Virus record (IMG/VR): IMGVR_UViG_3300034110_000489
Span: 1 to 52,813 of that record
DNA from: a virus
Lineage: Duplodnaviria; Caudoviricetes
DNA length: 52,813 nt
Reading direction: 5' to 3' (one strand)
A program made the translations under genes and the position numbers. The stretch's first letter is position 1, and each line of letters begins with the position of its first letter. The notes beneath the pieces are model-generated. The model was not told the DNA's origin. It worked only from the letters and a program-made list of their open reading frames with translations, and made no database searches. Shown here one piece after another: positions 1,482-52,091 of this stretch.

Positions 1482-1530
1482 GATGGCGACCCTTTCGAGG
1501 TGCTAGGTGTCGGCGTCTCCGACAGACGTA

Positions 1531-1559
1531 ACCATACACGACACCTCTACCCCGGTCAA
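1531..1559 (-). promoter_or_regulatory. Conserved sigma70-type promoter P1
   Basis: TTGACC-ggggtagaggtgtcgtg (17 nt)-TATGGT. Confidence 0.85.
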
Positions 1560-1669
1560 GTATGCCGAGAGATCCGCACCGGATAAGGGATCGGGGCGAC
1601 GCGTGCTCGACTCGACGTCGATCGAGGTCGTCGAGTCGGTGTCGTCGAGGGCGCCATCGTTGCGGGTAC

Positions 1670-1698
1670 TTGACGGGGGTAGAGTTATCGTGTAGACT
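1670..1698 (+). promoter_or_regulatory. Conserved promoter P2 (divergent from P1)
   Basis: TTGACG-ggggtagagttatcgtg (17 nt)-TAGACT. Confidence 0.85.
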
Positions 1699-1752
1699 TC
1701 AATCAGTCGAGGGCGGTCCTCGACGCCTAGAGATCCGAGGAGGATCCCCATC

Positions 1753-2010
1753 ATGAATAACACAACGTGGACAGAAATCGAAAAGGGTGCCGAGGTCAAG
1801 GTCGACGGCGTCCCCGGCGCTTTCGTCTTCATCTCGGTCGCGTCGAACGGCGACATCACGGTCTTCGGTGGATCGAAAGATCCCGCCGGCGTTCGGATGT
1901 TCCGGACGTTCCGGTCTGAGCGTGTCCGTCTCTACCGTCCACGCGTCGAGCATCGTCGGTTCCAACCATCGCCGGCGATCCCGCCGACCAACCGAAAGGG
2001 CCGGAGGTGA
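1753..2010 (+). CDS. Hypothetical protein, first gene of P2 cassette
   Basis: MNNTT start, GAGGAGG RBS. Confidence 0.7.
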   Translation: MNNTTWTEIEKGAEVKVDGVPGAFVFISVASNGDITVFGGSKDPAGVRMFRTFRSERVRLYRPRVEHRRFQPSPAIPPTNRKGRR

Positions 2011-2336
2011 GCGCGATGGAAATCGCACTCACGAAGTTTCAGGCGGAGGAGATCGTCGGTCTCCTCTCGGTGATCGACGATCAGAACTCGATCGCTCTCG
2101 ACATGGGATCCGACGACGACTTCATGCCGGTATGGGGAGTCATGGGCGGGACAGCATCGAAGCCGACTCTGATCGTGCTCGACGGTCAGCACCTCCACGC
2201 GATCGCCGACCTCGACTACCGCGCCGAGTACATGATCGAGGAGGGCGACCAGTCCGGACCGTCGATCCTGACGGGTTACTCCGGAGCACGATCGCTTCGA
2301 CTCGTCATCGGGAAGATCGAGGCGGCGAGTCTCTGA
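2007..2336 (+). CDS. Hypothetical protein
   Basis: GTGA overlap; GGAGG upstream of the in-frame ATG. Confidence 0.65.
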   Translation: MSAMEIALTKFQAEEIVGLLSVIDDQNSIALDMGSDDDFMPVWGVMGGTASKPTLIVLDGQHLHAIADLDYRAEYMIEEGDQSGPSILTGYSGARSLRLVIGKIEAASL

Positions 2337-2360
2337 TCGTCGAGGCGCTACGATGACGGA

Positions 2361-2672
2361 ATGAGCGCCGACGGGTGGGGGTGGGAAGTGAACGATCCCG
2401 ACGTGATCGCGAGAGCGACAGCGTCCGACGGTCGCGAGGTGCTGCTCCTCATGGCGCCGGCGGCGGCGCTCGACGGGAGCGACGGTCCCGTCGTCATCCC
2501 CGGGTTCGACTCCGACCGTGTTCACGTTGTGCTGTCCGACGAGTTCATCGAGCGTTACGTCATCGCTGAGGACGACTCGGCCGAGACCGTGCGGGAGAAA
2601 CTCGCGTTGCTGTCCTACGCCGTGCGCGAGTCGCTGTCGCTCGGGATCGACGCTCTCGACGGTCGACTCTGA
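2361..2672 (+). CDS. Hypothetical protein (probably leaderless)
   Basis: TACGAT 6 nt before ATG. Confidence 0.6.
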   Translation: MSADGWGWEVNDPDVIARATASDGREVLLLMAPAAALDGSDGPVVIPGFDSDRVHVVLSDEFIERYVIAEDDSAETVREKLALLSYAVRESLSLGIDALDGRL

Positions 2673-2893
2673 TCTCGGCGCCATCGGATCAGGTTCGCGA
2701 GATTGACGGTCCACCATAGGGGCGCCATCGCTGCGGCGACGTAAGCGTCGGCGAGGATCTGAAGCACGAACCACGGGACCGAGTGTCCGAGGACGATCGC
2801 CCACGCCCACCAGCGACCGGATCCTACTTTCCACTGACCGTACAGACCGATCGCCTCGAACACGAGGAGGATCGTCCACGTCGTCGAGTTCAC
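2615..2893 (-). CDS. Small membrane protein (PnuC-like pattern)
   Basis: Hydrophobic segments, RWWAW motif; GTGA overlap with upstream gene. Confidence 0.5.
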   Translation of the reverse strand: MNSTTWTILLVFEAIGLYGQWKVGSGRWWAWAIVLGHSVPWFVLQILADAYVAAAMAPLWWTVNLANLIRWRRDQSRPSRASIPSDSDSRTA

Positions 2894-3684: not shown

Positions 3685-3687
3685 CGG

Positions 3688-13071: not shown

Positions 13072-13595
13072 GCCGGATCGTTCACCATTTCGAGGACTGC
13101 CTCGATCGCTGCGATCTGATCGGCGTCGCCGATGCCGAGGGGACGGGCGGCGATCCGGAGGCGACGGATCATCGCGGCGACCGCTTCGGCCTCCGAGTCG
13201 TAGGGTGCGGCGTTGCTCGTTCCCTCGAATGGGTTCGTGAGGCGACATCCCGTCTTCGTGTTGCGGCGGGTGATCGTCACGCTCTGACCGTCGGCGTCTC
13301 CCCATGAGATCACGATCGTCTTCGGGAGGTGGAGGTTCGCCTCTCCGAGTGCGATCGCCTCGACGACCTCGGGCTTCGCTGATCGACGAGCGGCGGCGTC
13401 GGCCTTCACTGCTGCTTCAGCGGCGGCGACACGCGTCGCGCACGAGTCGAGGTCTCCACACTTCACGAACCACGGTGAGGAGTGGAACGGATAGTTCTTG
13501 TAGATGAAACCCTGACCGGCTTCGACGTGCTCGTGGCACTTGCCGCACGAGCCGGCGTAAGTGTTGGGGCGGTGGGCGGTGGTGGTCGTTGTCAT
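13068..13595 (-). CDS. Hypothetical protein with N-terminal Cys motif (P3, leaderless)
   Basis: NTYAGSCGKC..V.AGQG; ATG 7 nt after the -10 box. Confidence 0.7.
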   Translation of the reverse strand: MTTTTTAHRPNTYAGSCGKCHEHVEAGQGFIYKNYPFHSSPWFVKCGDLDSCATRVAAAEAAVKADAAARRSAKPEVVEAIALGEANLHLPKTIVISWGDADGQSVTITRRNTKTGCRLTNPFEGTSNAAPYDSEAEAVAAMIRRLRIAARPLGIGDADQIAAIEAVLEMVNDPA

Positions 13596-13602
13596 GTCAG
13601 TA

Positions 13603-13631
13603 ATCATACGTCTCGACTCTACCCCGGTCAA
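13603..13631 (-). promoter_or_regulatory. Conserved promoter P3
   Basis: TTGACC-ggggtagagtcgagacg (17 nt)-TATGAT. Confidence 0.85.
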
Positions 13632-19404: not shown

Positions 19405-19649
19405 CGGACGACCTCGACAATCTCGAACCAATCGAGTCCGCCAAACTTCGACGAAACCTTCGGCAAACATCTCTTACAACTAGCCGCCCATACTTCACCG
19501 TTGTCGGTGTTGATGAGTAGGTGGGTGGTGGGTTTGTTACATGGGTACTGGGACCATGTTCCAGCGATGTCCGCTCGGCGGCGGCACGACTGACCGCAGA
19601 GATGGGTATTCGGATGGAAGTTTGAAAGTGAAACGGCGGTGGTGTTCAT
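19401..19649 (-). CDS. Small Cys-rich protein, paralog of 42400-42648
   Basis: MNTT start; CGQSCRRR.DIAGTW shared with paralog. Confidence 0.75.
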   Translation of the reverse strand: MNTTAVSLSNFHPNTHLCGQSCRRRADIAGTWSQYPCNKPTTHLLINTDNGEVWAASCKRCLPKVSSKFGGLDWFEIVEVVR

Positions 19650-19699
19650 GGCGACCCTCCGAGGGTGCTAGGTGCCGAGGTCCGTCCTCGACTGACTGA

Positions 19700-19728
19700 A
19701 GCCTACACGACTCCTCTACCCCGGTCAA
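19700..19728 (-). promoter_or_regulatory. Conserved promoter P4
   Basis: TTGACC-ggggtagaggagtcgtg (17 nt)-TAGGCT. Confidence 0.85.
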
Positions 19729-40361: not shown

Positions 40362-40684
40362 CGTGCCGCCTCCGATCCGAAGTCGACGTTGACGAAGCAC
40401 GAGGCGAGGTAAGCGGTCTCGCCGAGATCCTCGGCGTAGACGTGAGTAACCTCGCCTTTGATCCACTGCTTCAGACCACGAGAGAACACTCGACGGACGC
40501 TGTAAAGATCGCGACCCTCGACGTACTCGACCTCGACGCTGTAACCGGATGAGACCGGGAACGAGAGTGTCGTCGAGGCGATGCGCTGAACGCGTCCGCC
40601 GGAGATGGCGAGGATGTTGGTCCGGCCGATCTGCTGTTCCATCGTGTGACAGATTTCGAGTTGGTAATCGGTGGTGGTGTTCAT
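40358..40684 (-). CDS. Hypothetical protein, first gene of P5 cassette
   Basis: MNTTT start; QQIG...ILAISGGR. Confidence 0.7.
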   Translation of the reverse strand: MNTTTDYQLEICHTMEQQIGRTNILAISGGRVQRIASTTLSFPVSSGYSVEVEYVEGRDLYSVRRVFSRGLKQWIKGEVTHVYAEDLGETAYLASCFVNVDFGSEAAR

Positions 40685-40730
40685 TGGGATCCCCTTCGGG
40701 TTCTAGGTGTCGGTCCGTCCGACGTGAGTA

Positions 40731-40759
40731 ACCATACACGACTGCTCTACCCCGGTCAA
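40731..40759 (-). promoter_or_regulatory. Conserved promoter P5
   Basis: TTGACC-ggggtagagcagtcgtg (17 nt)-TATGGT. Confidence 0.85.
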
Positions 40760-40925: not shown

Positions 40926-41210
40926 TCATCGCCCACCTCCGGGACACGACAGCGCCTCGGCGATCTCCGAGATCCGATCCTCCGGACCGATGTCGGCGAC
41001 ACTCCGACCGCAACACGGGAGGATCCCATCGGTCGGGATCCCGTGAGTCGAGAAGACGAGGACCTCCTCGCACGGGATCCGATAGCGCCGGCCGCCGATG
41101 ACGACGGTCGCGATCCTCGATTCGCGCGTTACGTGCTGAAGGCGACCGACTCGACCATCGTCGAGGACTACCTCCCGCTTGTCGCGCGCGTGGGCGAATG
41201 TCGGCTTCAT
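40926..41210 (-). CDS. Hypothetical protein
   Basis: MKPTFAH start, ATGA overlap. Confidence 0.55.
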   Translation of the reverse strand: MKPTFAHARDKREVVLDDGRVGRLQHVTRESRIATVVIGGRRYRIPCEEVLVFSTHGIPTDGILPCCGRSVADIGPEDRISEIAEALSCPGGGR

Positions 41211-41497
41211 GACGTGGACTCTTTCGGGTAGTGATAGGTGACAACCGACTCGGATCCGGAGCGTCGGAGACGAGTCCACGATCGGAGCACCTCTCCCCGG
41301 TCGGTCGAGTCAGCGTAGGACCTCGGACGGATGTCGAGGTCGTAGTACATCACCTCGGAGAACTCCTCGACGTTGACGAGGTCGAGGGTAGCGATGACGC
41401 GTCCGCCGGCGACGATGTCGAGACCGCCGTCATCGTTGGCGATCGTGACGAGTGTCGGGATCTCGTGCGGGATGATCGGCGTCGGCTCGGTGCTCAT
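41207..41497 (-). CDS. Hypothetical protein
   Basis: GGGGGAG RBS, ATGA overlap. Confidence 0.6.
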   Translation of the reverse strand: MSTEPTPIIPHEIPTLVTIANDDGGLDIVAGGRVIATLDLVNVEEFSEVMYYDLDIRPRSYADSTDRGEVLRSWTRLRRSGSESVVTYHYPKESTS

Positions 41498-41627
41498 GAC
41501 TCCCCCGGTTCTTCGCAGTCGTGACCGAACGCCCGTTCGCATGAACAGACCCGGACTCGACACTCCGGACACGAGGACACTCCTCGACCGTGACAGTCGT
41601 CGTTCGGCTCGTGCCGTTGGTCGGCGC

Positions 41628-42143
41628 TCATCGGACGACCTCGACGATCCGATCGAGGCCGGCGGCGCGACGCTCGGCGACAGCGAGTCGGGTTCGTGCG
41701 GTCCACGCCCTGTCGGCGGCCAGCGATGCGGCCCGAGTCGAGGTCCGGTCGACGAGGAGATACCAGCGGTGATGTTTCTCCGCTTCGGTTTCTTTGCCGA
41801 TGGCACGATCGAGAGCGGAGCGAAGCGCTCGGTGAGTCACGATCTCGAACGTCGAGGCGTTGCGCCCGATCTGAGAGTCGAGAGTCGTCACGACGTAGAC
41901 GGTCCGGCCACGGTCGGCGCCGGTCAGAGCGTGCTTCGAGAGTTCGCCGGTCGGGACGAGGTCATCCCACGCTGAGCGGATCTGTCGCGCACACTTTGAG
42001 CAGATGTCGACGGACATCGTTCCGTGAATGGTGGTCGTGATCTTTCGGTGTGTTGCCGGTCCGTGGCGGTCGACGTGGGATTCGGTGAACAGGTTCGCAC
42101 ACTGTCCGCCGTTCGAGATGATGGTCGAGTTCATGGCGATCAC
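41628..42143 (-). CDS. Hypothetical protein (P6 cassette)
   Basis: Coupled ORF containing CSKC, ending IVEVVR. Confidence 0.6.
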   Translation of the reverse strand: MIAMNSTIISNGGQCANLFTESHVDRHGPATHRKITTTIHGTMSVDICSKCARQIRSAWDDLVPTGELSKHALTGADRGRTVYVVTTLDSQIGRNASTFEIVTHRALRSALDRAIGKETEAEKHHRWYLLVDRTSTRAASLAADRAWTARTRLAVAERRAAGLDRIVEVVR

Positions 42144-42403
42144 TTTCCGATTCCGTAAGCGGCGGCGAGGAAGTATCCGAGTGCTTCGCTCTCGGTGACG
42201 CTGAGCATCCGGGCGAGACTGCGGAGGAGGTCGTCGCTCTCCTCATGCCATTCGGCTGAACGCTCCGACATCTCCTCGGAGATGGTGTCGAGTCCGGCGT
42301 AGTGAGCGTTTTCGACGGCGGTGTCGTAGAACTCTGCGATGCGGATCGTCATCTCGATCTTCTCGACGAGTCGGGCGGTGGTGGTGGTGGCGACGTTGCT
42401 CAT
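42140..42403 (-). CDS. Hypothetical protein (P6 cassette)
   Basis: MSNVATTTT start at ATGA. Confidence 0.6.
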   Translation of the reverse strand: MSNVATTTTARLVEKIEMTIRIAEFYDTAVENAHYAGLDTISEEMSERSAEWHEESDDLLRSLARMLSVTESEALGYFLAAAYGIGK

Positions 42404-42648
42404 CGGACGACCTCCACGATCGAAAGGTGAGCGACCTCGTCGGCCCACGAGGAGACCTTCGGGGTACACCTCGTACAGAACGCGATGACCGCTCGACCGT
42501 CGTCGGTGTTGAGGAGCGCACGAGTTACGGGAAGGCCGCACGCTTTCGCTACCCATGTGCCGGCGATGTCGCCTCGGCGGCGACATGACTGTCCGCACTG
42601 ATGCGAGTTCGGATGAAGATCGGAAAGCGTGATGGTGGCGGTGTTCAT
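42400..42648 (-). CDS. Small Cys-rich protein, paralog of 19401-19649
   Basis: CGQSCRRRGDIAGTW...CTRC.PKVSS...IVEVVR. Confidence 0.75.
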   Translation of the reverse strand: MNTATITLSDLHPNSHQCGQSCRRRGDIAGTWVAKACGLPVTRALLNTDDGRAVIAFCTRCTPKVSSWADEVAHLSIVEVVR

Positions 42649-42697
42649 GGCGACCCTCCGAGGGTGCTAGGTGCCGGCGGTGTTGCCGACAGGAGTA

Positions 42698-42726
42698 ACA
42701 ATACAGAGGACCTCTACCCCGGTCAA
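42698..42726 (-). promoter_or_regulatory. Conserved promoter P6
   Basis: TTGACC-ggggtagaggtcctctg (17 nt)-TATTGT. Confidence 0.85.
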
Positions 42727-42851
42727 GTTATTAGGGAAACAATCCTCTGACCTGCGGAAACGCGCCTAATCCCGGACGCGAAAGCGACGCTCGACCGGAC
42801 CCGACCTCCCCCGAGGACATCCGATCGAGCGTTGCGACGAGCGCTCGGGAG

Positions 42852-43391
42852 TTACTGAGCCAGTGACGACTTCAACATCCACGCGTGTTTCTGATGAGAC
42901 TCGATCCGCTCCGAAATCAGATTCGCGATTCCCTGCTCATTAGCGGCGGACGCGATCTCGAACGTCGAGTTGAGCGACACGAGAACGGCCATGTTCCCGA
43001 CGTGGAGATCGGCGGACATCTCCGCGGGCATCGGCGAGGAGACCGGGACGTCGACGATCGAGCGAAGCGCCATGATGTCCGGCAGTCGGAACGGAGCCAT
43101 GCCGTCGAGCGCGCGGATGCTCTCCGCTATCGGATCGACACTCGACTCGACATCCTCGTAGATGGATCCGTACAGAGCGTGATACTCGGCGAAGTCGGAT
43201 CCGATCACGTTCCAGTGGTAACCGTGTGCTCGAAGCGAAAACGAAATCACGTCGGCGAGGAGACGTCGAAGCGACGAGACCAGCATCGGACGCGCCTCGT
43301 CGAGATCGTGTTCGGCCTTCGCCAGTGGAGCGGCGACAGTGCGAAACGCGACCGGGGTCGCGTCATGGTTGCGGGAAATGTGAACGGTCAT
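42852..43391 (-). CDS. dps: Dps-family mini-ferritin
   Basis: HGYHWNVIG.DF..YH, D.IAE.IRAL, HQKHAWML; ATGA overlap with protease gene. Confidence 0.9.
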   Translation of the reverse strand: MTVHISRNHDATPVAFRTVAAPLAKAEHDLDEARPMLVSSLRRLLADVISFSLRAHGYHWNVIGSDFAEYHALYGSIYEDVESSVDPIAESIRALDGMAPFRLPDIMALRSIVDVPVSSPMPAEMSADLHVGNMAVLVSLNSTFEIASAANEQGIANLISERIESHQKHAWMLKSSLAQ

Positions 43392-45421
43392 ACGTTGCCT
43401 TCCGAGGGTAGATCGACGGTCACGCGTTGACCGGCTCCGCCCATAGAGTAGCCGCGGATCTTTCCCGCTTTCACGAGGTCCCACGCCCACGACTCCCAAA
43501 CGACGCCCATGAACACGGTTCCCGGTGGGAACTCCTGCTCGACAGTGAGTCCGGATCCGGCGTCGATCATCGGAACCGACACGGCGTACGGCCATGTCAG
43601 AGCCTCGACCCATTCGCCGGCGACGATCTCGACGTCGTGCTGAAGTCGGATCTGTCGGTCGCCCTTGCGGACATAATCCCATAGCGCCGACTGAAGTTCT
43701 GTCGAGTCGGTCCATTCGCCGTGCGCGTCGTACGAGTCCGGGACGTACCACGGTCCGAGAGTGAAACGACGTTCCTCCGCCTTAGCGAACACGGACGGGA
43801 TCGAGCGTTCGAGAGCGCCGATCTCGGTGAGGGTGCCGACACGGTGTCCGACGCGTCGATCGGTGGGGCGCCATCCCTCCGACGTCTCCTCCCATAACCG
43901 AATGAGAGCGGCGGGGTCATCCTCGGACGCGTCGATCGTGAACGATGAGTCGGGGACAGCGATCGGACGATCCGTCGAGATCCGCTCGACCTGACCTCGA
44001 CCTCGACCTCCGGACGATCCCCAAGAAACATACGAGCCGACTCCGATCCGTTTCGACATCATGCCGGCCGGGGAGACCAGTCGACGCCGAGAGCGTCCGC
44101 CGGATCCCATCGGAACTTCGACGTGGACATCGGAGACCGACGGCGATCCCTTGTCGATCCCGTCGAGGATGCCACGAGTCCACGAGACGGCGGGGTCTCC
44201 TCCCCAAGCGGCCCACGCGACGCGACCCGGCGACGGGTATCCCGGCTCTCCGGGCGACCATCCTTCGCCCTGCTTGTCGGCCTCGTGACGAGCAAGGTAC
44301 GAGGAGATCCGCTCCACGGTGTCGAGCGAGACGGGGTTTCCGGCGGCGAGGTCAGAGGCGCGACGTCGGCCGGTCGGAGTGAATCCGTCTCCGGCGTGAC
44401 CCTCGGCGATCCATGCCTCGGCCCGTGCGGCCTCCTCGCGGACTCCGGCGGGAGGCTCGAACGTGTCGGCCTTAGCGAAACGCTCGACCTCGGCGAGACG
44501 TGCCTCGGCCTCGGCGCGAGTGTCGTACGTGCCGAATGATCGACTGCCATCGGCGGACGTCACACGAAACCGACCGTCGACCTCGACGACCTCCTTCGAC
44601 ATCGTCTCGACGATCTGAAGTCGCTCCGGAATCACCCATAGTTTACAGATTCCTTCGGGAGCGATGGATCCCTCGACCCAATAGCACCCGCCGACCTCGG
44701 GGCAATAGGCTACGCAGTTGTAGCAGGCGAGACCCTCGTCGACGAACGGCGACTCGTCGATGTAGTGGGCGTCGGACTGTCGGAAGCATCCGAGCGCGTC
44801 GACGATGAGATCGTGAGCCTCGGCCAGTGCGGCGGATCGGAGAGTCAGGTCGCCGAGTTGGCTCTCGTGCTCGTGCTCGGAGTCGTGGGCCATCGGATCG
44901 GCGCCGTACTCGGACATCAGGTCTTTCGCCATCGGGGACGGGATGAACAGGCGAGGCGCCAGCGCTCCGACGCGTTGCCGGTTGTCGGAGGTCGACGCGT
45001 TGCCAGTGTCGACCGAGAGCGCTTTCCCGAACACTGTCCGGAGACGATCGAGGAGACCGAGGAGACCGCCGCGATCCTCGTCGTCGTCGTCGTCGTCGTG
45101 ATGCTCTTTCTCGGTGTCGTAGTTGCCGGCCTCGATCTCGGTCTCGTAGGACATCTCCATTTCGTCGACGTGGTAGTCCGTCTCGATCTTGGTCGACTCC
45201 TCGTCCTCGGACTCGGTGTCCTCCGGATCCTCGACGGTGCCAGTCGGAGCGATCACGAGTCGGTATCCGCTCTCGTCGACGATGGTCGCGATGTCGGCGA
45301 CAGTCATCCCGGACGCGATGAGTTCCTCAGCGGTAACGCGGATGTCCTCGGGCATTCCGTCTTTCGTGAGACGGTCGAGGGGAACGGCGCGGATGATGTC
45401 GACGATTCGTGTTTCGGTCAT
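43388..45421 (-). CDS. Multidomain capsid maturation protease (XkdF-like C-terminus)
   Basis: RFTLGPWYVPD..DAHGE...LQH...WDLVKAGKIRGYSMGG; extra HiPIP-like and Tudor-like domains. Confidence 0.85.
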   Translation of the reverse strand: MTETRIVDIIRAVPLDRLTKDGMPEDIRVTAEELIASGMTVADIATIVDESGYRLVIAPTGTVEDPEDTESEDEESTKIETDYHVDEMEMSYETEIEAGNYDTEKEHHDDDDDDEDRGGLLGLLDRLRTVFGKALSVDTGNASTSDNRQRVGALAPRLFIPSPMAKDLMSEYGADPMAHDSEHEHESQLGDLTLRSAALAEAHDLIVDALGCFRQSDAHYIDESPFVDEGLACYNCVAYCPEVGGCYWVEGSIAPEGICKLWVIPERLQIVETMSKEVVEVDGRFRVTSADGSRSFGTYDTRAEAEARLAEVERFAKADTFEPPAGVREEAARAEAWIAEGHAGDGFTPTGRRRASDLAAGNPVSLDTVERISSYLARHEADKQGEGWSPGEPGYPSPGRVAWAAWGGDPAVSWTRGILDGIDKGSPSVSDVHVEVPMGSGGRSRRRLVSPAGMMSKRIGVGSYVSWGSSGGRGRGQVERISTDRPIAVPDSSFTIDASEDDPAALIRLWEETSEGWRPTDRRVGHRVGTLTEIGALERSIPSVFAKAEERRFTLGPWYVPDSYDAHGEWTDSTELQSALWDYVRKGDRQIRLQHDVEIVAGEWVEALTWPYAVSVPMIDAGSGLTVEQEFPPGTVFMGVVWESWAWDLVKAGKIRGYSMGGAGQRVTVDLPSEGNV

Positions 45422-45475
45422 GAGATGGCTCCTTCGGTGCGGCAGTGTAACCGACGAGGTGTCGCCGGCCCGGGG

Positions 45476-46432
45476 TCACTCCTCGATCTCGATCTCGTCA
45501 TCGGATGGTTTCGACGACTCGGCGTCCCCCGGAGCGACGTCCGGGATCAGGACAGCGGTACAGCGACAGTTCGGATGAGCGGGAGGCATACCATCGTCCG
45601 AGGAGAAATCCCCATCCGCCGCGACGATCTCGCCGTCGTAGATCGAGCACTCCTCGCACGCGTCCCCCTCGGCAATCCATTCCTTCGACGAGTTAGAGAG
45701 ATCCACGAGTCCGGCGTCTTGTGCTTGCTGCCATGAGATAGCGCGTCCCTCGTTCGCCGCTGTCATGACTTCGGTTCGGGCGATCATCATCGAACGCGAG
45801 TCGATCAGTCGATCGCGATACGCCTCGGCGAGACGCTCGGCGCGTTCCTCGGCGGCGGTGCTCGTGAGACCCTCAGCGAGAAAGGACGTTACGTTTCGTT
45901 GGTACGAGTTCTCGACGGCGGCCGCCCATCGCGGGAACAGTCCGATCTGTCGGGGGATCTCGCGCGCGATCTGTCGCGGGTCGATCTGATTCACGAACGA
46001 TGAAGTGATGAGTTGACGGATCTCCGCTCGGACACTCTCACCGATGCCGACGACCAGTTCTCCGGACCTCGCCGCCGCCCACGCTGTCGCCCGTGGATCC
46101 GTCACGTCGAACGCATACGCTCCGACGACTCGACCGATCGACCGAGTCTCGGCGACTCCGGTGTTCACGATCTGCTGAAGCAGAGGTATCCGGGATGTCG
46201 ACATCCTCTCGCCGAACGTGGACCAGTTGAACGCCTGAACGGCCGCTCCGACTGAACGCGACGACAGAGCACGAGAAAGCGTCGCCGTGTCGAGGTCGGA
46301 GGTCAGTCCCCGAAACGCCTCGGCGATGACCGAAGTCATCCTACGTTCGGTTGCGGTCAGACGTTTCGTCCCGAGGAGACGTCGTCCCGGGTTAGCGACC
46401 TTCTGTATTTGGCGACCCCTGCGCGCGTTCAT
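45476..46432 (-). CDS. MuF-like minor head protein
   Basis: MIARTE, KEW, CEEC, PPAHPNCRC. Confidence 0.9.
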   Translation of the reverse strand: MNARRGRQIQKVANPGRRLLGTKRLTATERRMTSVIAEAFRGLTSDLDTATLSRALSSRSVGAAVQAFNWSTFGERMSTSRIPLLQQIVNTGVAETRSIGRVVGAYAFDVTDPRATAWAAARSGELVVGIGESVRAEIRQLITSSFVNQIDPRQIAREIPRQIGLFPRWAAAVENSYQRNVTSFLAEGLTSTAAEERAERLAEAYRDRLIDSRSMMIARTEVMTAANEGRAISWQQAQDAGLVDLSNSSKEWIAEGDACEECSIYDGEIVAADGDFSSDDGMPPAHPNCRCTAVLIPDVAPGDAESSKPSDDEIEIEE

Positions 46433-46441
46433 CGAGATCGG

Positions 46442-47965
46442 TTACTCGGACTCGGAACCGGGAGCCTTGAGGGTCGTCGGTTGAAGTCCGGTGAACCTCG
46501 CACCCGGCAGACCGACGAGTTTCGCCGCGACCTCCGGCTCCATGCCGGCACGGATCAGGATCCCGAGAGCGTCGGCCTTCGCGCGCATCGTCGCGACGTC
46601 GTCGGCCTCGGTGGTGACAGTGTCGACCGTCTCGGTGTCCATCTCCTCGGGCATTCCGAGGCCGGGGATGAGAGTCGAGAGAGGCGACTCGTGATCGGCC
46701 GGCGGGAGGTTGCCGACATCGCGCAAGAAGTTTTCGAGTCCCTCGTCGGGGATGAGTGCTCCGGCCTGAGTGAGTTTCCCGACGAAGTCGGCGATCGAGG
46801 TTAGGTCGATGGATCCGAGTTCGCCGTAGGTGAGCATCGGACAGCGCGACGTATCCATACCGTTGAGTTTGAGGAGACGAGGGATCGCGTGATCGTTGAA
46901 GACATCGCAGATAGCGCGCACCCATGCTTCGACGGCGGAGATGAACAGGTCGATCTTCGAGGATCCGAGAGCGAATGATCCGACGCCTTCGTGTCCGAGG
47001 AGAATGAAATCGGAGAGTGTCGTCATCGCGATTCGTTGGTCGTAACGAGAAATAATCTTGTCCGTGTCGAACTGACGTTGACCGCCGGAGGAGAGAAGTT
47101 CGAGTCGGAACATCTCGCGTCCGCTCTCGTCGTATGCCAACGGGAACACGACGCCTTCCTGCTCGTTTCGTTTGATCCCCTGAACGATGTCGGTGATCGC
47201 TGAAAGTGCGGACTGTTGGGCCTGAGTCGCGCTCGACGAAAGCAACGACGGCGGGACGTATGCGATCGGAAGTCCGGCGAGATCGCGTTCGATGCCGACC
47301 GCCTCGAACTCCTCGATACGACGCTTGTAATACCACGGGCGAAACGAGTTGCGGAGAATGGAGCGACCCTCGGGGTTCGCCTTTGCCACTGTCGTTCGGA
47401 ACAGCAACGCTTTTTCCATCGGGATCGTCGCGTGTTTGCCGGTCGACGGATCCCACTGAACCATCGCTTCGAGTCCACCATCGGGACCGAACACCCATTG
47501 CCAGCGCGTTTCCTGAGCACGGTAGGCGATCTTTCGCCATCCGATCTTCCCGTCGTTGTAACGTGATTTCTTCGACGCGTCTTTCGCGTCCGGTCCGCCT
47601 CGACGCTTGTAGACGAGTTCGTGAAACGAGAATCCGAACGGGAGCATCGTCAGGATTCCTTGAAGCAACGCGCCCCACGATTCGTTCAGGTCGTGGCGAC
47701 ACGACTCGACGAACTCGGCGACTGCCTCATCCTGCGGAGTGCTCACGCCGTCGGAGTCGACGTACGGGTCGGTGCGCCATTCGACTTTCATGATGAGTTT
47801 CTCGATAGCGAACAGCAGAGCGCCGACGATCGGATCGTTGTCCGACATCTCGCGCCACGCGTTGACGGCGTTAGTTCCCCGGAGGGCGGAGAGTTGGTCG
47901 TCGATGACGAAGCCGCCGACGCGACGTAGGCCGGTTGTTCCGAGTTCGGTCATCTCGTCAGACAT
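46442..47965 (-). CDS. Portal protein
   Basis: 507 aa; GFSFHELVYK, NPEGRSILR, IERDLAGLP, GSFAL. Confidence 0.9.
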   Translation of the reverse strand: MSDEMTELGTTGLRRVGGFVIDDQLSALRGTNAVNAWREMSDNDPIVGALLFAIEKLIMKVEWRTDPYVDSDGVSTPQDEAVAEFVESCRHDLNESWGALLQGILTMLPFGFSFHELVYKRRGGPDAKDASKKSRYNDGKIGWRKIAYRAQETRWQWVFGPDGGLEAMVQWDPSTGKHATIPMEKALLFRTTVAKANPEGRSILRNSFRPWYYKRRIEEFEAVGIERDLAGLPIAYVPPSLLSSSATQAQQSALSAITDIVQGIKRNEQEGVVFPLAYDESGREMFRLELLSSGGQRQFDTDKIISRYDQRIAMTTLSDFILLGHEGVGSFALGSSKIDLFISAVEAWVRAICDVFNDHAIPRLLKLNGMDTSRCPMLTYGELGSIDLTSIADFVGKLTQAGALIPDEGLENFLRDVGNLPPADHESPLSTLIPGLGMPEEMDTETVDTVTTEADDVATMRAKADALGILIRAGMEPEVAAKLVGLPGARFTGLQPTTLKAPGSESE

Positions 47966-48254
47966 ACGGGGTCTTCCTCCGGGCGGTGATCTTCAGCGAC
48001 GCGCTCTCTATCGTAGCGCCTAGATTCATCTCGGACCGGATGCGCGCGCGATCGTCGCGAGCGTGACCTCCCCATACGCCGAATGGCTCGTCGAGGTGCT
48101 CGGTCAGACAGCGTATGCGAACGAGACAGTCAGCGCAGACGCGACGCGCCTCGCCGACCTCGTCACGAGAAAAGAACAACGAAAGCGGGATCTCCTCGGA
48201 TCGGCATCGGGCGCCTACCCACCACGGCGGAGCGGCGACGAACGGGAGTCTCAC
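47958..48254 (-). CDS. WhiB-family transcriptional regulator
   Basis: A.C...FF...ARRVCADC.VR..CL...GVWGG. Confidence 0.87.
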   Translation of the reverse strand: MRLPFVAAPPWWVGARCRSEEIPLSLFFSRDEVGEARRVCADCLVRIRCLTEHLDEPFGVWGGHARDDRARIRSEMNLGATIESASLKITARRKTPYV

Positions 48255-48439
48255 TCGGCGAGACCTTGCTCAGCGATGAGGTACGCGATCAGTCGGAGGG
48301 CGGCGCCGTCGTCGAATCCGCCGTCGATCAGGGCGAGGTAGATCTCGTGTAGTGCGACGGTCGCTTCGACCAGTGGGGCGAGGTCGACGTCGTCCTCGAT
48401 CTCGTCGAGGTCCTCGTCGTCGTAATCGTCGGCGCTCAT
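48251..48439 (-). CDS. Hypothetical protein (leaderless)
   Basis: TACGAT 6 nt before ATG; LHEIY.AL..GGF. Confidence 0.65.
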   Translation of the reverse strand: MSADDYDDEDLDEIEDDVDLAPLVEATVALHEIYLALIDGGFDDGAALRLIAYLIAEQGLAE

Positions 48440-48888
48440 CTCCGGATCGTAGCGGGAGATCGGCGACCGTCGGGGATGCTCAGTCGAGGAAGCGGGCCGC
48501 GATGATCGCTCGGGCGCGCACCTCGTGGAAACTGAAATGCGATCGTGCGGCGACATAGCGGGAGAGGGTCTCGCGCATCCGGTACGCGTGTCGTGCCGAC
48601 GGGCGGTCGTGACTCTTTACGGAGAGTTGGGCGACGTGATGCCAGCCGGCCGCCTCGGTGATGAGGAGACGGACCGAGTCGGTGTCGAGGACCTCGGCGC
48701 CGTCGACGATGGCGACCTCTGCTCCGGGGATCACTTGCCGGCCCGGATCATGTCGAGGACAGTCTCGGCGGAGTCGACGAGGAGTCGGAGACGCTCGATC
48801 TCGACGATCGCCAGTTCGAGCCATAGGGGGTCGACGCGATCTCCGCCGGCGTCTCGGATCGTGCGGAGCCGGTCGAGGATGTCCGGTC

Positions 48889-49419
48889 TCATTCGTCGCC
48901 TCCGAGAGTGACGGCCTCACGGGCGGCGGTGCGGAGTTGGTCGGCGACTCCGGGCGGGAGAGTGATCGTCGAGCCGGCGAGACCTCGGGAGAGTTTCTCT
49001 ACGATCATGGCGGGGAGGACGATCGCGAGAGATCCCTCGGGGACCGTTGGTCGTCGAGTCCGTGTCGACGGTTCCTCGATCGGTCGTCCGTCCACGAACA
49101 ACGGGAGGACGTAGATCTTACATCGGTTGCGGGAGGCGGAGAGGCGGGCGATGAGTCCGGCACGGTGGAGAACCGACAGGACTCCGGACGCCTGTCCGTG
49201 ATGCCATCCGAGCGCGTCGGCGAGGTCGTGCCACGTCATCCCGTCGGAGCCGGCGGCCTTGAGTCGGCGGAGCGTCTCGGACTGTCGGGCGGTGGTCGTG
49301 CCGTCGGTGTCCTCGACGCGTGCTCGACGCTCGGAGGTGTCGGTTCCGGAGTGTCCGGACGTGCCGGCGTACGGGAGGATCGGATCGAACAGGTCGCGAT
49401 CGAGATCGGGAGAGGTCAT
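48889..49419 (-). CDS. Winged-HTH DNA-binding protein
   Basis: GMTWHDLADALGWHHGQASGVLSVLHRAG. Confidence 0.7.
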   Translation of the reverse strand: MTSPDLDRDLFDPILPYAGTSGHSGTDTSERRARVEDTDGTTTARQSETLRRLKAAGSDGMTWHDLADALGWHHGQASGVLSVLHRAGLIARLSASRNRCKIYVLPLFVDGRPIEEPSTRTRRPTVPEGSLAIVLPAMIVEKLSRGLAGSTITLPPGVADQLRTAAREAVTLGGDE

Positions 49420-49616
49420 CGGTCGCCGCCTCGGATGACGATCCCGGAGTCGAGACCGACGGCGCCGTCGTCGATCGCGTGAAACAGACGGGCGAGGAGT
49501 TGGTACAGCATCTCGACGGATGGATCGTCGCCTCGGTCGAAGTCGTCGGCGAGGAGGTCGACGAGGTGTCCGAGGTCGTCGATCGAGATCGAGACCCATG
49601 ATTCGGGGGAGGTCAT
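49416..49616 (-). CDS. Hypothetical protein
   Basis: AAAGGA RBS, ATGA overlap. Confidence 0.55.
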   Translation of the reverse strand: MTSPESWVSISIDDLGHLVDLLADDFDRGDDPSVEMLYQLLARLFHAIDDGAVGLDSGIVIRGGDR

Positions 49617-49932
49617 GCGGCATTTCCTTTCGTGGTGGTGTTGGGGGTGTTGCTCTGTTGAGTCTCCCATCGGCGGTACGCGTCGAGGGTGATGGTCGTT
49701 CCGATGAGGGCGTGAGGCGGAATCCGGAGAGAGACGCCTCGTCGAGAGACTGTCGTCCACGTCGAGGCTTCGTCCTCGTCGTACGATCCGACGCGTGTCC
49801 GGGCGTCACGGTCTCGGCCGATCAGGTGCGGGAGGATGTCTCGGTCACCCATGACGCCGGCGTATCGGTTCTCCCACGCGATCGACGGGAGTCGAGGCGG
49901 ATCGTATGACGACGGTCGGCCGGGTCCGTCGA

Positions 49933-50178
49933 TCACGGGAGACCTCCGGACGGATGCGTCGAGGCGGTGAGGATCTGATCGTCAGAGATCCAAAGAAGGC
50001 GAGAGGTGTCGTCGGCGGTGGCGACGTGGACCGGGACGATCTGTCGGAGCGCGCACGGGACGACGGGGCGCTCGTCGGCGATGACGCCGAGGCAGAGAGT
50101 CGCGAGGTGCGATCCGGTTACGGTCTCATTGTCGAGGACGAATCGGACTGTCATCCCGGGGGCGAGGTCGAGGGTCAT
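49933..50178 (-). CDS. Hypothetical protein
   Basis: MTLDLAPG start, ATGA overlap. Confidence 0.5.
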   Translation of the reverse strand: MTLDLAPGMTVRFVLDNETVTGSHLATLCLGVIADERPVVPCALRQIVPVHVATADDTSRLLWISDDQILTASTHPSGGLP

Positions 50179-50396
50179 CGGGCGATGTAGAGGGCCGGGG
50201 CGATCAGGGTATGAGCGTCGTCGAGTGCTCTCGTGCGATGTCCGGCGCGTGTGAACGGGGCGAGGTCTCGGGAGTCGACAGCGTGTCGGACGATCCACGA
50301 GCCGGCGGGGAATCCGTGGACATCGGAGAGGATCGGTTCGGCCGGTCCGATCAGTCGGAGACCGTCGAGCCATGCGGGGCGTATGGGATCAGGCAT
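50175..50396 (-). CDS. Hypothetical protein
   Basis: GGAGG RBS. Confidence 0.55.
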   Translation of the reverse strand: MPDPIRPAWLDGLRLIGPAEPILSDVHGFPAGSWIVRHAVDSRDLAPFTRAGHRTRALDDAHTLIAPALYIAR

Positions 50397-50658
50397 CGGA
50401 CGAGCCTCCTTCGGTGATCGGATCGTAGTCCGGTGCCTCCTCGAAGATGGCGACGAACCGATCGCCGGCCGGGGTCGTGATCTCCCATCCGGGGCCGCCG
50501 TAGAAATGGTCGAGGGCGATCGACCATCCGGTCGGGAGGGTGACGAGGTTGTTCTCCGGGACCTCGACGAGCGAGTAGAGGAGGACGAGAGCGGCCTCCT
50601 CTGCTGTCCGGTGGTACGGGTCGTGAGGGTCGACGTAGTCGGGGTGCGGGGCGGTCAT
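50389..50658 (-). CDS. Hypothetical protein
   Basis: GGAGG RBS, ATGA overlap. Confidence 0.6.
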   Translation of the reverse strand: MTAPHPDYVDPHDPYHRTAEEAALVLLYSLVEVPENNLVTLPTGWSIALDHFYGGPGWEITTPAGDRFVAIFEEAPDYDPITEGGSSDA

Positions 50659-50842
50659 GAGATGGATCCTCCGAGGGTCAGGGTATGGGCTTCGATGGTG
50701 GCGATCGGTGACGGGTCTCCGGTTACTCGGAGCATCGTGTACGAGTGCTCCCATCGGTCGAGGTCGAGGTCGTCGATCCGGTCGAGGATCGCGGTCCGGT
50801 CGTCGAAGTTGGCGGGTAGGTGAAGCATGATCGAGGCCACGG

Positions 50843-51133
50843 TCAGACCTCCCCGGTCGACGCGTCTCGGATGTCCTGACAATACGGACACCATTGTTCG
50901 GGGGCGCTCGACCATGATCGGGCGAGGTCGATCGTCTCGTGAGAGCACACTCCGCCGTGGTCATCGCAGAGCGTGTACCACGGTTGCGTACCGCCGTCGG
51001 AGTCGAGGCCGGCGGCGTCTGCCTCGGCGACGAGGACGAGAGTCCCGGTCGATCGGGCGAACGATGCGGAGCGGATGCCGGCGTAGGTCAGTGCCTCGCG
51101 ACGTCGTGCTCGGCGATCGGTGTCGGCGCTCAT
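50843..51133 (-). CDS. Hypothetical Cys/His protein
   Basis: W..LC..HG...WCPYC. Confidence 0.65.
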   Translation of the reverse strand: MSADTDRRARRREALTYAGIRSASFARSTGTLVLVAEADAAGLDSDGGTQPWYTLCDDHGGVCSHETIDLARSWSSAPEQWCPYCQDIRDASTGEV

Positions 51134-51324
51134 CGTGCGCCTCCGTCGAGGTCGGCTCCGCCGGTGGCGATCAGGATCTCGGCGGTGTCGACCGGGAGAG
51201 GGAGCGAGCGGAACGGGTAGCGGCCCTGAGCGATGTAACGGGCGCGGCGTCGGCCGTTCTTGTCTGTCGAGAAGGAGATCGTGATCCGGCAGTTGTATCC
51301 GGGTGTGTTGGTGGTGGTGTTCAT
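51130..51324 (-). CDS. Hypothetical protein, first gene of P7 cassette
   Basis: MNTTT start after conserved leader. Confidence 0.7.
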   Translation of the reverse strand: MNTTTNTPGYNCRITISFSTDKNGRRRARYIAQGRYPFRSLPLPVDTAEILIATGGADLDGGAR

Positions 51325-51374
51325 GGTGGTCGCCTCCGTGGCGGCTAGGTGTCGGCCGGTGTGCCGATGGATGT

Positions 51375-51403
51375 ATCTTACACGATCGCTCTACCGGGGT
51401 CAA
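51375..51403 (-). promoter_or_regulatory. Conserved promoter P7 (spacer variant)
   Basis: TTGACC-ccggtagagcgatcgtg (17 nt)-TAAGAT. Confidence 0.85.
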
Positions 51404-51667
51404 GTACCCCGGGGAGATTTCTTTCGGGCCAGTCTCGGACCGGGATCGAGAGCCGGTCGACCAGCGCCCATACGAGGACGAGGTCGTCGGCGATCTCCTC
51501 CTCGATCCGGTAGGGGGGAGCGGGAGTCTCGATCGACAGTTCGATTACTGACCGGCGGAGACCCTGTAGGAGCGCCTGACACTCCTCCGGGGTGAGATCG
51601 ACCGAGAGGACCGGACCGATCTCGCCGGCGCTCTCCGAGCCTCTGAGGGTGCTCTCCGGGTTCATGC

Positions 51668-52039
51668 TCAGTACCCGTAGTCTCGACGGGGAGCGACCTC
51701 GTCGAGCCATGCGGCGTCGACGTCGGCGCCGGCGACGAGGCAGAGCGTCCGGACCCGGTCGGAGCGGTCGAGGAGGATGTCGAGCGGATGACCGATCGCG
51801 CGTCCCGTGACGACTCGGTAGGCGTCGCGATGCTCGGAGATGTCGTCGACGTTGCCGGCCGAAATGTAGAGATGGTTGGCGGCGGTGCCTCGGCCAGTCG
51901 TGACCGAGAATCGGAGTCCGGTCCGTTGGCGGAGCATCGTCCGTAGGAGAGCGGCGGTCTCCTTCGGGGAGTCGGCGATCGCGGTCAGACGGTAAAGGTC
52001 GTATGAACCGATGGTGGCGGGAATGGTGGTGGTGTTCAT
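51668..52039 (-). CDS. Hypothetical protein, first gene of P8 cassette
   Basis: MNTTT start; G.RFSVTTGRGTA. Confidence 0.7.
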   Translation of the reverse strand: MNTTTIPATIGSYDLYRLTAIADSPKETAALLRTMLRQRTGLRFSVTTGRGTAANHLYISAGNVDDISEHRDAYRVVTGRAIGHPLDILLDRSDRVRTLCLVAGADVDAAWLDEVAPRRDYGY

Positions 52040-52091
52040 GGTGGTGATCCTCCTCGGATCTCTAGGTCGGCCGGGGCGGCCGTTGCTCGTA

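Follow-up and report, generated by a model that had tools for sequence, protein, structure and literature searches.

A lineage-specific structured leader repeated upstream of unrelated genes in an IMG/VR phage genome

Why should unrelated genes on both strands of a phage genome begin with the same short leader, and what would such a leader do? The question is raised by the IMG/VR virus record IMGVR_UViG_3300034110_000489, the whole of which (52,813 bases, 62% G+C) was analysed and is called the window below. It contains seven leaders, each oriented with its gene, which head six unrelated gene families with one paralog pair. A first-pass annotation had described them as a candidate new cis-regulatory RNA made up of a hairpin, CCUAG, a second hairpin holding the Shine-Dalgarno (SD) sequence and an AUG AAC ACC ACC start, with the look of a motif recognised by a protein or nuclease. 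The leader is real, lineage-specific and structured, and it would work like known 5' stabiliser hairpins, with no new principle. As to its more exact nature, there is about an even chance that it is an expression leader confined to this lineage, with a 5'-terminal stabiliser hairpin, akin to the start-associated sequence (SAS) and extended SAS (ESAS) repeats of actinophages.

The cassettes are headed by eight copies of a promoter, each consisting of TTGACC (TTGACG in c1726p), a 17-nucleotide (nt) spacer and TAnnnT. Seven of the eight continue into hairpin 1, (A/G)CCTAG, an SD-containing stem and ATG AAC/AAA/AAT ACC/AAC, and the eighth is leaderless. All the elements that the first-pass annotation had listed are found in their places, as are the seven stems that it quoted (TGTCGG/CCGACA, GTCGAGG/CCTCGAC, GTCGAGG/CCTCGGC, GTCGG/CCGAC, GTCGGC/GCCGGC, TCGGC/GCCGA and CGGCC(G)/(C)GGCCG).

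Six of the leaders lie on the minus strand. The c52062m promoter (52092..52120; -35 hexamer TTGACC at 52120-52115, a 17-nt spacer containing GGGGTAGAG, -10 hexamer TAAGGT at 52097-52092) is followed by a leader at 52037..52091, with hairpin 1 (CGGCCG-CCC-CGGCCG, 52082-52068), CCTAG directly after the stem (52066-52062), SD stem GATCC-GAGGA-GGATC (52060-52046) and ATG at 52039-52037 (MNTTT, 123 amino acids (aa)). In c51345m, the promoter (51375..51403; TTGACC, 17 nt, TAAGAT) has the spacer variant CCGGTAGAG, and the leader (51322..51374) comprises hairpin 1 TCGGC-ACACCG-GCCGA (51367-51352), CCTAG (51349-51345), SD stem CGCC-ACGGA-GGCG (51343-51331) and ATG at 51324 (MNTTT, 64 aa). The c42667m promoter (42698..42726; TTGACC, 17 nt, TATTGT) precedes a leader (42646..42697) whose hairpin 1, (U)GUCGGC-AACACC-GCCGGC(A), contains one U·G pair (42691-42672); CCTAG at 42671-42667, SD stem ACCCT-CGG-AGGGT at 42665-42653 and ATG at 42648 (MNTAT, 82 aa) follow. 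The c40703m promoter (40731..40759; TTGACC, 17 nt, TATGGT) is followed by a leader (40682..40730) with hairpin 1 GTCGG-ACGGA-CCGAC (40723-40709), CCTAG (40707-40703), a weak SD stem CCC-GAAG-GGG (40700-40691) and ATG at 40684 (MNTTT, 108 aa). In c19668m (promoter 19700..19728; TTGACC, 17 nt, TAGGCT; leader 19647..19699), hairpin 1 is GTCGAGG-ACGGA-CCTCGGC with one U·G pair (19692-19674), CCTAG lies at 19672-19668, the SD stem ACCCT-CGG-AGGGT at 19666-19654 and ATG at 19649 (MNTTA, 82 aa). The c1503m promoter (1531..1559; TTGACC, 17 nt, TATGGT) is back to back with that of c1726p, and its leader (1479..1530) comprises hairpin 1 (U)GUCGG-AGACG-CCGAC(A) (1524-1508), CCTAG (1507-1503), SD stem ACCT-CGAAA-GGGT (1501-1489) and ATG at 1481 (MKTTT, 95 aa).

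The sole plus-strand copy is c1726p, with its promoter at 1670..1698 (TTGACG, 17 nt, TAGACT) and its leader at 1699..1755 (hairpin 1 GTCGAGG-GCGGT-CCTCGAC, 1706-1724; CCTAG, 1726-1730; SD stem GATCC-GAGGA-GGATC, 1732-1746; ATG at 1753, MNNTT, 85 aa). The leaderless copy, c13617m (13593..13631, minus strand), has TTGACC, 17 nt, TATGAT and then only 7 nt before the ATG at 13595 (MTTTTTAH, 175 aa). N-termini behind the seven leaders are thus MNTTT in three cases and MNTAT, MNTTA, MKTTT and MNNTT in one each. The first genes of the eight cassettes gave no family match reaching the curated cut-off. The 82-aa paralogs (42400-42648 and 19401-19649, both minus strand) are cysteine-rich and 56% identical, with a conserved CGQSCRRR and C..C, each behind a leader; no Pfam or PHROG match was obtained for the pair, and a pattern search of IMG/VR gave no relative.

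The promoter family is well beyond chance. Its core, TTGACCGGGGTAGAG, occurs eight times in the window at no more than three mismatches (seven minus-strand copies, one plus-strand), whereas shuffled sequences average 1.7 copies and none of 100 reaches eight; ACTTGACnnnGGTAGAG-N7-GTA likewise has eight occurrences. Three of the promoter copies are the sole sigma-70-like sites that a consensus scanner reports in 40000-52813. The leaders form an equally sharp set, as a covariance model built from them gives the seven copies scores of 58-66 bits, with 14.3 bits for the best of the remaining matches in the window. That weak match, at 13694-13745, lies near a CCTAG whose TAG is the stop codon of the minus-strand gene 13671-13931; this CCTAG is preceded by GGTCGGACCCGGACCG and stands just upstream of the leaderless promoter (13671-13700), and it may be a decayed leader.

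Where the transcript would begin can be estimated from the two kinds of copy. As folded by RNAfold, the stem of hairpin 1 starts 6-9 nt after the -10 hexamer, and 7 nt after it in four of the seven copies. Counting from the -10, the 8th nt is the G of GUCG in five of the seven leaders, to two of which RNAfold adds an outer U-A pair; the c51345m stem starts at the same distance and that of c52062m two bases later. The window and ten related loci together hold 27 promoter copies, 20 of them with a leader (12 distinct sequences) and seven leaderless. The leaderless set represents three distinct genes, namely that of c13617m (with orthologs in L014, L025 and L190), L018:541 (with a copy in L189) and one in L152, and in all three configurations the A of the AUG is the 8th nt after the -10. 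These genes have no SD, and their proteins start MTTTTT. A leaderless mRNA starts with its start codon by definition, and because the leaderless AUG occupies the same 8th nt, the +1 of this promoter class is predicted to fall at the first base of hairpin 1.

Comparison of the copies indicates that in hairpin 1 it is pairing, rather than sequence, that is conserved. All seven window copies are more stable than their dinucleotide shuffles (z from -1.4 to -3.2, mean -2.3). The alignment used, A7, was anchored on the promoter and has 13 rows: the seven window leaders, five distinct variants from close relatives, and L199, a locus with a capsid protein 80% identical to that of the window. Plain MAFFT alignments of the leaders (A3 and A4) put the 5' arms out of register, with RNAalifold returning only three pairs, and the model-fitted A5 inherited this misregister; A7 was used instead. 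In A7, 89.5% of cells in the two helices pair, compared with 77.2% with shuffled partners (a level reached in 0 of 500 shuffles), changes on both sides occur at five of 11 pairs (matched in four of 500), and the covariation score is 0.322 as opposed to 0.158 in shuffles (0 of 500), figures that are not to be read as probabilities because the rows are related. Sliding the helices by 1-3 columns leaves 16-49% of cells paired.

Individual copies give the same picture, and bear out the annotation's view of a hairpin near the predicted +1 that keeps its pairing under sequence change. The c40703m and c19668m copies have the loop ACGGA in common, and their stems differ by matched insertions (GTCG-G/C-CGAC and GTCG-AGG/CCT-CGGC). 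At the same place, L199 has a wholly different stem, GUGGGG/CCCUGC, with two G·U pairs. The alignment contains six G·U cells in all, and the two window copies that have such pairs fold less well as antisense (-7.3 vs -10.9 and -7.6 vs -11.1 kcal/mol); the G·U pairs thus make hairpin 1 strand-specific. A single terminator-like match opposite hairpin 1 of c51345m was considered as an antisense terminator and is taken as chance.

These features suggest the following mechanism. The leaders would be the 5' untranslated regions of near-identical promoters of the host sigma-70 (SigA) type, which head operons and small accessory genes. Hairpin 1 would start no more than about 2 nt from the first transcribed base, so the mRNA would be born with a base-paired 5' end. 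Enzymes of 5'-end-dependent decay need unpaired 5' nucleotides. For RppH of Bacillus subtilis, at least two unpaired 5' nt are described as the requirement (PMC3997798). A paired end would deny access to an RppH-type pyrophosphohydrolase, to the 5' sensor of RNase E and to the 5' exonuclease activity of RNase J, and the transcript would be stabilised. Downstream would follow a short single-stranded R-CCUAG linker, a stereotyped ribosome-binding site and, after the AUG, an A/C-rich (ACC) run that would keep the initiation region open and may enhance initiation in the manner of CA-rich downstream sequences. The whole unit would be an expression cassette, spread and exchanged within the genome by recombination between copies. 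In this scheme, the repeats, the promoter geometry and the hairpin, with its covariation, strand specificity and recurrence in relatives, are observed, whereas the +1 position, the stabilisation of the transcript and the part of the ACC run as an enhancer are inferred. A stabiliser hairpin is favoured because of the position at about +1, the conservation of structure over sequence, the strand specificity, the variable spacing of the arms and the recurrence of the arrangement in the cultured Arthrobacter phage Ottawa, and it fits better than recognition by a protein or nuclease.

Several observations weigh against a stabiliser. The stems are short (5-7 base pairs (bp), -7 to -12 kcal/mol), and that of c52062m, which begins 9 nt after the -10, would perhaps leave two unpaired 5' nt. 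All 13 aligned rows come from one clade, as paralogs or orthologs, and related sequences can surpass shuffles without any structure. None of the 24 public runs that hold the window sequence is an RNA run, all being DNA, so the +1 rests on promoter geometry; were TAGAG(T) in the spacer used as a -10-like hexamer, as TAGAGT is in Microbacterium phage AnnaSerena, the +1 would move about 14 nt upstream. The invariance of R-CCUAG is left unexplained by a simple stabiliser. Finally, in L018 (503-852) and L152 (minus strand), a leaderless gene of 103 or 145 aa stands between a c52062m-type promoter and the leader, the hairpin is internal and is rebuilt as an 11-bp stem, and a stabiliser does not explain why an enlarged hairpin persists at a site that is not 5'-terminal.

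Another possibility is that DNA, rather than RNA, is what is read, with hairpin 1 and CCTAG (+1 to +25) binding a phage regulator as a stoperator-like roadblock or an activator site. The 3' half of hairpin 1 and the linker do form an asymmetric conserved block of about 11 nt, YCGRC-R-CCTAG, at a fixed distance from the promoter, and the authors of the Cluster K work favoured DNA-binding proteins for ESAS, whose repeats are described there as not covarying (PMC3203893). The window also encodes a transcription factor of the WhiB family (48042-48224, minus strand; 46.5 bits, above the cut-off), just upstream of the portal gene (region 47958-48254), and this protein is a candidate regulator of the repeated promoters. 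However, the spacing of the GTCG...CGRC half-sites varies from 11 to 15 nt, which makes them a poor fit to a rigid dimeric DNA binder, the arm sequences change compensatorily, and each G·U pair is an A·C mismatch on the other strand. No HTH_3 repressor or integrase was found in the window, and the phage looks lytic. An operator of the Cluster A stoperator type, which calls for a fixed asymmetric DNA site of 13-14 bp in many copies together with a repressor gene and a lysogeny module, was rejected on similar grounds, as only about 11 nt are fixed, the rest covaries, and neither Phage_integrase nor HTH_3 is matched. The spacer sequence GGGGTAGAG and the upstream AGAAATCTCC block are better candidates for a protein site than is the variable hairpin. 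An operator within the leader is held to be quite improbable.

The spacer sequence itself, directly 3' of the -35, is near-invariant (1545-1553, minus strand, is an example), with GGTAGAG in eight of eight copies. Conservation so far in excess of a spacer's requirements suggests that a protein site overlaps the promoter. The published ESAS of Microbacterium Cluster EF phages likewise has a GTAGAG core at its centre, where it is readable as a -10-like hexamer, TAGAGT. Upstream of the -35, at about -60 to -37, four of the eight copies have a block (G)AGAAATCTCCCC(C)GGG(G)T, of which c52062m has a variant; minus-strand examples are 19729-19770, 40760-40790, 51404-51435 and 52121-52150, some of which form a GGGAGA/TCTCCC inverted repeat, and a reduced form, AGAATCTCC, is present at L199:1-23. 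Such a block could belong to the promoter as an upstream element, serve as a site for a regulator or mark where the preceding transcript ends.

In a rival proposal, which takes up the idea of the first-pass annotation, a trans-acting factor reads the leader, with two helices presenting single-stranded R-CCUAG to host RNase E, to a phage endoribonuclease or to a translational repressor, and with the seven operons forming a post-transcriptional regulon controlled by the timing of processing or by repression. R-CCUAG is invariant in the seven window leaders and in all 20 leader-bearing promoter copies of the clade (12 distinct sequences), whereas the loops and the SD stem vary, and the helices on either side of it both covary to some extent. 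Mycobacterial RNase E is described as preferring R N|C N U in single-stranded RNA (PMC10641625), and a purine before CCU agrees with the strongest elements of that preference. The module of hairpin, CCUAG and SD stem is kept where it is operon-internal in L018, and one Ottawa copy has CCGA-CCTAG directly after its hairpin. Invariance within a single clade can, however, reflect recent duplication or gene conversion, and it does not extend far. L199 keeps the layout with ACUAG, without the U at +3; the internal copy in L152 has no CUAG; and CCTAG is absent from 12 of the 13 Ottawa copies. R|CNU carries little information, which makes the match to it weak. Neither an RNA-binding protein nor a nuclease emerged as a candidate, and the cassettes' first genes all remained below curated cut-offs. 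A trans-acting factor seems unlikely, and somewhat more doubtful still is the stronger proposal of a dedicated recognition or cleavage signal, in which cutting or binding at CCUAG by host RNase E or a phage-encoded factor would remove the protective 5' hairpin and switch seven operons off, or on, together, as a regulon like that of RegA/RegB. The invariant CCUAG of the annotation thus holds for the window and its immediate clade, but not for L199 or for the internal copy in L152.

The pentamer is special only by its fixed position in the leader, since CCTAG is not enriched in the window overall (24 sites against 28 expected). Two other roles for it were rejected. An in-frame UAG stop is contradicted by the spacings to the ATG, which put the TAG in frame in only four of seven leaders (18, 18, 18 and 21 nt, as opposed to 20, 22 and 22 nt), and a sigma-dependent pause element by the hexamers beginning at the TAG, which lack the final T in all seven.

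Nor does the second stem appear to be specific to the leader. It is present, as annotated, and covaries at two pairs in the 13-row alignment, but it is no more stable than shuffles (mean z -0.77). The folding energy from -32 to +3 averages -7.3 kcal/mol for six cassette genes, compared with -7.9 ± 3.3 for 76 other open reading frame (ORF) starts preceded by an SD (p=0.46), a crude control set that includes some false genes; the seventh cassette fell outside the rule for picking starts. Comparable hairpins holding the SD are found at non-cassette genes, for example at 28709 and 29462. In the ortholog of the c40703m leader in L010 (7310-7372), the SD region is rewritten, and one of the four consensus SD-stem pairs is kept, as judged by eye on A7. 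The SD stem is read as the phage's general style of ribosome site and not as a leader-specific structure.

The ACC-rich start is similarly a habit of the lineage as a whole. It is found at the cassette starts, as the AUG AAC ACC ACC of the annotation implied, and strongly so, with a mean of 2.33 ACC codons at positions 2-6 in six cassette genes and 0.17 in the 76 other ORF starts (p=4e-6); all 12 occurrences of ACCACCACC are on the coding strand. However, it is also present on the leaderless genes (MTTTTT), on the internal gene at 1030 (MNTAT) and, in L199, on the homolog of the c40703m gene, the second gene of its operon, where both hairpin and CTAG are missing, and so the run is not tied to the leader. 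Among 31 homologs of the 108-aa c40703m protein, nearly all of those at 70% identity or above start M-[NST]-T-T or MTTDY, whereas distant ones differ. ACC runs are also seen upstream of the SD in some homologs and at some window sites. CA repeats downstream of the start are described as enhancing both SD-led and leaderless translation (PMC9031893), and translation enhancement by a CA-rich start would be the most economical reading of the ACC run.

The first-pass annotation had also allowed that CCTAG might be a DNA crossover core, and this alternative receives some support from mosaic joints. These were located with contigs of two public runs (X7 and X12) and with loci L010 and L018, all from relatives about 97% identical to the window. 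In one, 236 other letters stand in place of the 254 nt that run from CCTAG (42667) to the first gene's end (42412). In another, hairpin 1 of c52062m has 343 letters containing a leaderless gene where the window has 13 internal nt (52076-52088). A third replaces 207 nt just 3' of the c40703m first gene, and a 449-nt deletion is also found among the relatives. Module replacements thus end in the leader, both at CCTAG and inside hairpin 1. The other edge is stereotyped as well, as five of the eight first genes end -CGA-TGA, overlapping the ATG of the next gene (minus-strand ends at 42400-42415, 40358-40372, 19401-19415, 1194-1208 and 51130-51144), and three of the eight share ...GAGGTCG(Y/C)(C/A)CGA-TGA-GC, with C-termini -VEVVR, -VEVVR and -VEVAR. 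After these -CGA-TGA junctions, four of the next genes start MSA and one MSN, and the replacement gene in L010 ends alike (-EAVVR). The common C-terminus seems to result from the constraint of the following gene's ribosome site, which overlaps it.

On this evidence the promoter-leader blocks and the junctions at first-gene ends could serve as patches of DNA homology for module exchange and gene conversion, the RNA fold being incidental; the CCTAGAGATCCGAGGAGGATC shared by c52062m and c1726p, whose genes are unrelated and on opposite strands, and the recurrence of -CGA-TGA ends in the L010 replacement gene fit this. Mosaic joints in phages are nevertheless expected at gene boundaries, and an incidental fold leaves the compensatory changes, the G·U pairs and the different paired stems of L199 and Ottawa unexplained. 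A 5-nt core is too short for homologous exchange, and neither a tyrosine recombinase (0 matches to PF00589 in the window) nor an integron-type core site is present. A recombination boundary is compatible with a stabiliser hairpin and does not exclude one, but as the explanation of the leader it is considered rather improbable. The first genes behave as exchangeable cassettes between stereotyped junctions, which is compatible with an RNA function of the leader. Integron attC sites, which are imperfect inverted repeats with a GTTRRRY core and belong to cassettes without promoters, were rejected as a parallel, as there is no tyrosine recombinase, each cassette has its own promoter and no GTTRRRY core was seen in the leaders.

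How far the leader extends beyond the window depends on whether sequence or layout is followed. Close relatives (83-98% DNA identity) comprise five IMG/VR contigs, two metagenome contigs and two short contigs from a metagenome-assembled genome (MAG). Searches of IMG/VR, metagenome contigs and GTDB genome contigs with the promoter pattern returned only close relatives and chance matches in AT-rich DNA; the pattern CGACRCCTAG..ATGAAHACC returned the clade alone, plus two chance matches inside coding sequence; and a search with the 108-aa protein gave known loci only. The pattern CCTAG..ATGAAHACCRCC was discarded as too loose, with at least 117 rows that were mostly chance, and CTAG..ATCCnnGGAGGAT..ATG returned L199 and about 19 unrelated families, a large one of about 40% GC among them, which is about the chance number by a rough estimate. 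Of 80 loci with a related capsid protein (69-98% identity; 852 kb in all), L199 alone has a leader-like sequence. There, cTTGACA-17-TAAACT is followed after 6 nt by GUGGGG-AACAAG-CCCUGC, GAACUAG, GAUCC-UAGGA-GGAUC and AUG UCC ACC AUC ACC, so that the layout and CUAG are kept and CCUAG is not. In L018 and L152, the internal hairpin is followed by CCUAG in the former only. By these searches the leader is a narrow sequence family, the layout of which recurs in cultured phages. In an unrelated, abundant phage group of about 28 IMG/VR contigs (L277-L334, about 40% G+C; for example L277, minus strand, 6319), a terminator and a promoter are followed by AATTAAGA-CTAG-ATCC(T/G)AGGAGGAT-TAA-ATG GCA ACA ACA upstream of one gene. 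There too, CTAG precedes an SD flanked by ATCC/GGAT and then Thr codons, a likeness to the 3' half of the leader that may be chance.

The genome that carries these cassettes is probably that of a lytic siphovirus of an actinobacterium, to judge from its gene content. Nearly all window genes are on the minus strand. They include the portal (46442-47965), the major capsid protein (35907-36884) and the tape measure (24861-27728), and the window further encodes a MuF-like head protein, a Mu Gam-like protein, the N-terminal domain of a terminase large subunit, an exonuclease, a helicase and a ParB-like nuclease. No match to a tyrosine recombinase/integrase (PF00589) or to an HTH_3 repressor was found in the window, other repressor folds and serine integrases being outside the search. 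An actinobacterial host is indicated by the WhiB-family gene together with the nearest isolates, which are phages of Arthrobacter and Microbacterium. WhiB-like proteins are transcription factors in Actinobacteria, and among 14 control genomes the family was matched only in Corynebacterium. By capsid protein, the nearest cultured phages are Arthrobacter phages Ottawa and Kharcho (60%), with others at 53-55% and Microbacterium phage ValentiniPuff at 53%; no DNA match was obtained among 50,697 phage records, either by megablast with 40500-42800 or by blastn with one cassette. DNA of the phage is present in lake-water and freshwater metagenome runs.

The ends of the window (1-237 and 52577-52813) repeat each other with 233 of 237 positions identical, and locus L189 spans their junction; the genome is therefore probably circular or terminally redundant. 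It is probably complete, either circularly permuted or terminally redundant, although the record is classed as linear and 79% complete. Once the ends are joined, c1503m, c1726p, c52062m and c51345m form one neighbourhood between terminase and portal. L189 and L190, short genome contigs near-identical to parts of the phage, are binned in a MAG labelled Arenimonas sp., a gammaproteobacterium. This binning is doubted because the WhiB gene and the nearest cultured phages indicate an actinobacterial host, and it is probably due to composition or coverage.

Compared with known systems, the leader has no counterpart in Rfam release 15, with 0 matches at gathering thresholds over the whole window and 0 at E<=1 around six of the seven leaders (c19668m was searched at gathering only). 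Its closest parallels in predicted function are the 5'-terminal stem-loops of the Escherichia coli ompA and papA leaders, on which Emory, Bouvet and Belasco reportedly worked. Stabilisers of this kind begin within a few unpaired nucleotides of the 5' end and prolong the mRNA half-life, an effect lost on disruption of the stem or on addition of unpaired 5' bases. Like these, the leader has a short hairpin that does not depend on sequence, here with a predicted place at the 5' end, followed by a single-stranded segment and a ribosome-binding site. They differ in that they are single-gene cases shown by experiment in Proteobacteria, whereas here there is a seven-copy family with a predicted 5' end. 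The gene 10 leader of phage T7 also has a 5' stem-loop of the stabiliser type. Lambda nut sites, with boxA and a boxB hairpin downstream of early promoters, likewise combine a small hairpin and a conserved linear element near the starts of several early phage transcripts. However, the linear element of the leader is 3' of the hairpin, and the loops vary in length (3-6 nt) and in sequence and thus offer no conserved surface for recognition; no N-like protein turned up in the window.

Among cultured phages, the nearest parallel is in Ottawa (OQ938580.1), which is also the nearest cultured relative by capsid; it carries a promoter-like repeat, (T)CTAGACA..AACCCCnnTTAGGTTAGCTT, 13 times on the plus strand (for example at 10098, 11305, 11902, 12529, 13474, 14434, 35867, 47124, 54377 and 55002). 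As in the window, 12 of the 13 copies continue into a hairpin, the main stem of which begins about 7-8 nt after the -10-like hexamer, and one copy is leaderless; a linker of 10-20 nt with an SD follows, and then an ATG, often with ACC codons. Four stem sequences occur, mostly GGCCCC/GGGGCC but also TTCGTC/GACGAA, GCGGACC/GGTCCGC and TCGGCACC/GGTTCCGA. One copy has CCGACCTAG after its hairpin. Ottawa differs in its promoter, which is of the type TAGACA ... TAGCTT with AACCCCnnTTAGG, and in lacking CCTAG after the other hairpins. Many of its repeats stand in front of small genes that lie in a run between the head genes and the tail genes. No published description of repeats of the Ottawa type was found in literature searches or in the 2017 survey of Arthrobacter phages (PMC5513430), which predates Ottawa, although they may still have been described.

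The SAS and ESAS of Cluster K, the repeats of Cluster EF and the 18-bp motif of Cluster EC are described as being of unknown function (PMC3203893, PMC7302621). As in the window, SAS/ESAS repeats are described as occurring in many copies, oriented with transcription, just upstream of the starts of mostly small genes of unknown function, and as including copies among genes inserted between terminase, portal and capsid genes; a conserved ribosome-site region is preceded by an inverted repeat or a conserved block. The window shows what defines the kind, namely a repeated, oriented element at the ribosome site of unrelated genes with a linked upstream inverted repeat. The sequences are different. 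SAS membership is defined by at least 10 copies of a 13-bp asymmetric consensus (GGGATAGGAGCCC or GGGAAAGGACCCC) lying 3-7 bp upstream of starts, and at two mismatches or fewer these give one and two matches in the window, against 1.26 and 1.40 expected, with none at a leader. RNA pairing found no support in the published account of ESAS (PMC3203893), whereas the arms of the window leaders covary, and the window has a plainly complete promoter and leader, with CCTAG and an ACC-rich start. In AnnaSerena, TAGCG(A/G) lies upstream at four of the eight GTAGAG sites in the first 50 kb, giving promoter-like TAGCGA/TAGAGT pairs, one of which is followed by an 8-bp hairpin, the published SAS and an ATG.

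By this comparison of sequences, the leader resembles the SAS/ESAS kind without being a sequence member of it. Actinophage start-associated repeats (SAS/ESAS and the motifs of Clusters EC, EG and EI) are described as being of unknown function, and the window is an unusually clear case, as its repeat resolves into a complete cassette of promoter, hairpin at about +1, stereotyped ribosome site and ACC-rich start. If CCUAG were a site of recognition or cleavage, it would offer a mechanistic explanation for SAS/ESAS-type repeats generally. If hairpin 1 is a stabiliser, such repeats could help to mark out transcription units when uncultured phages are annotated, they would account for the expression of small accessory genes that have been inserted in structural operons, and they would provide compact expression parts for Actinobacteria.

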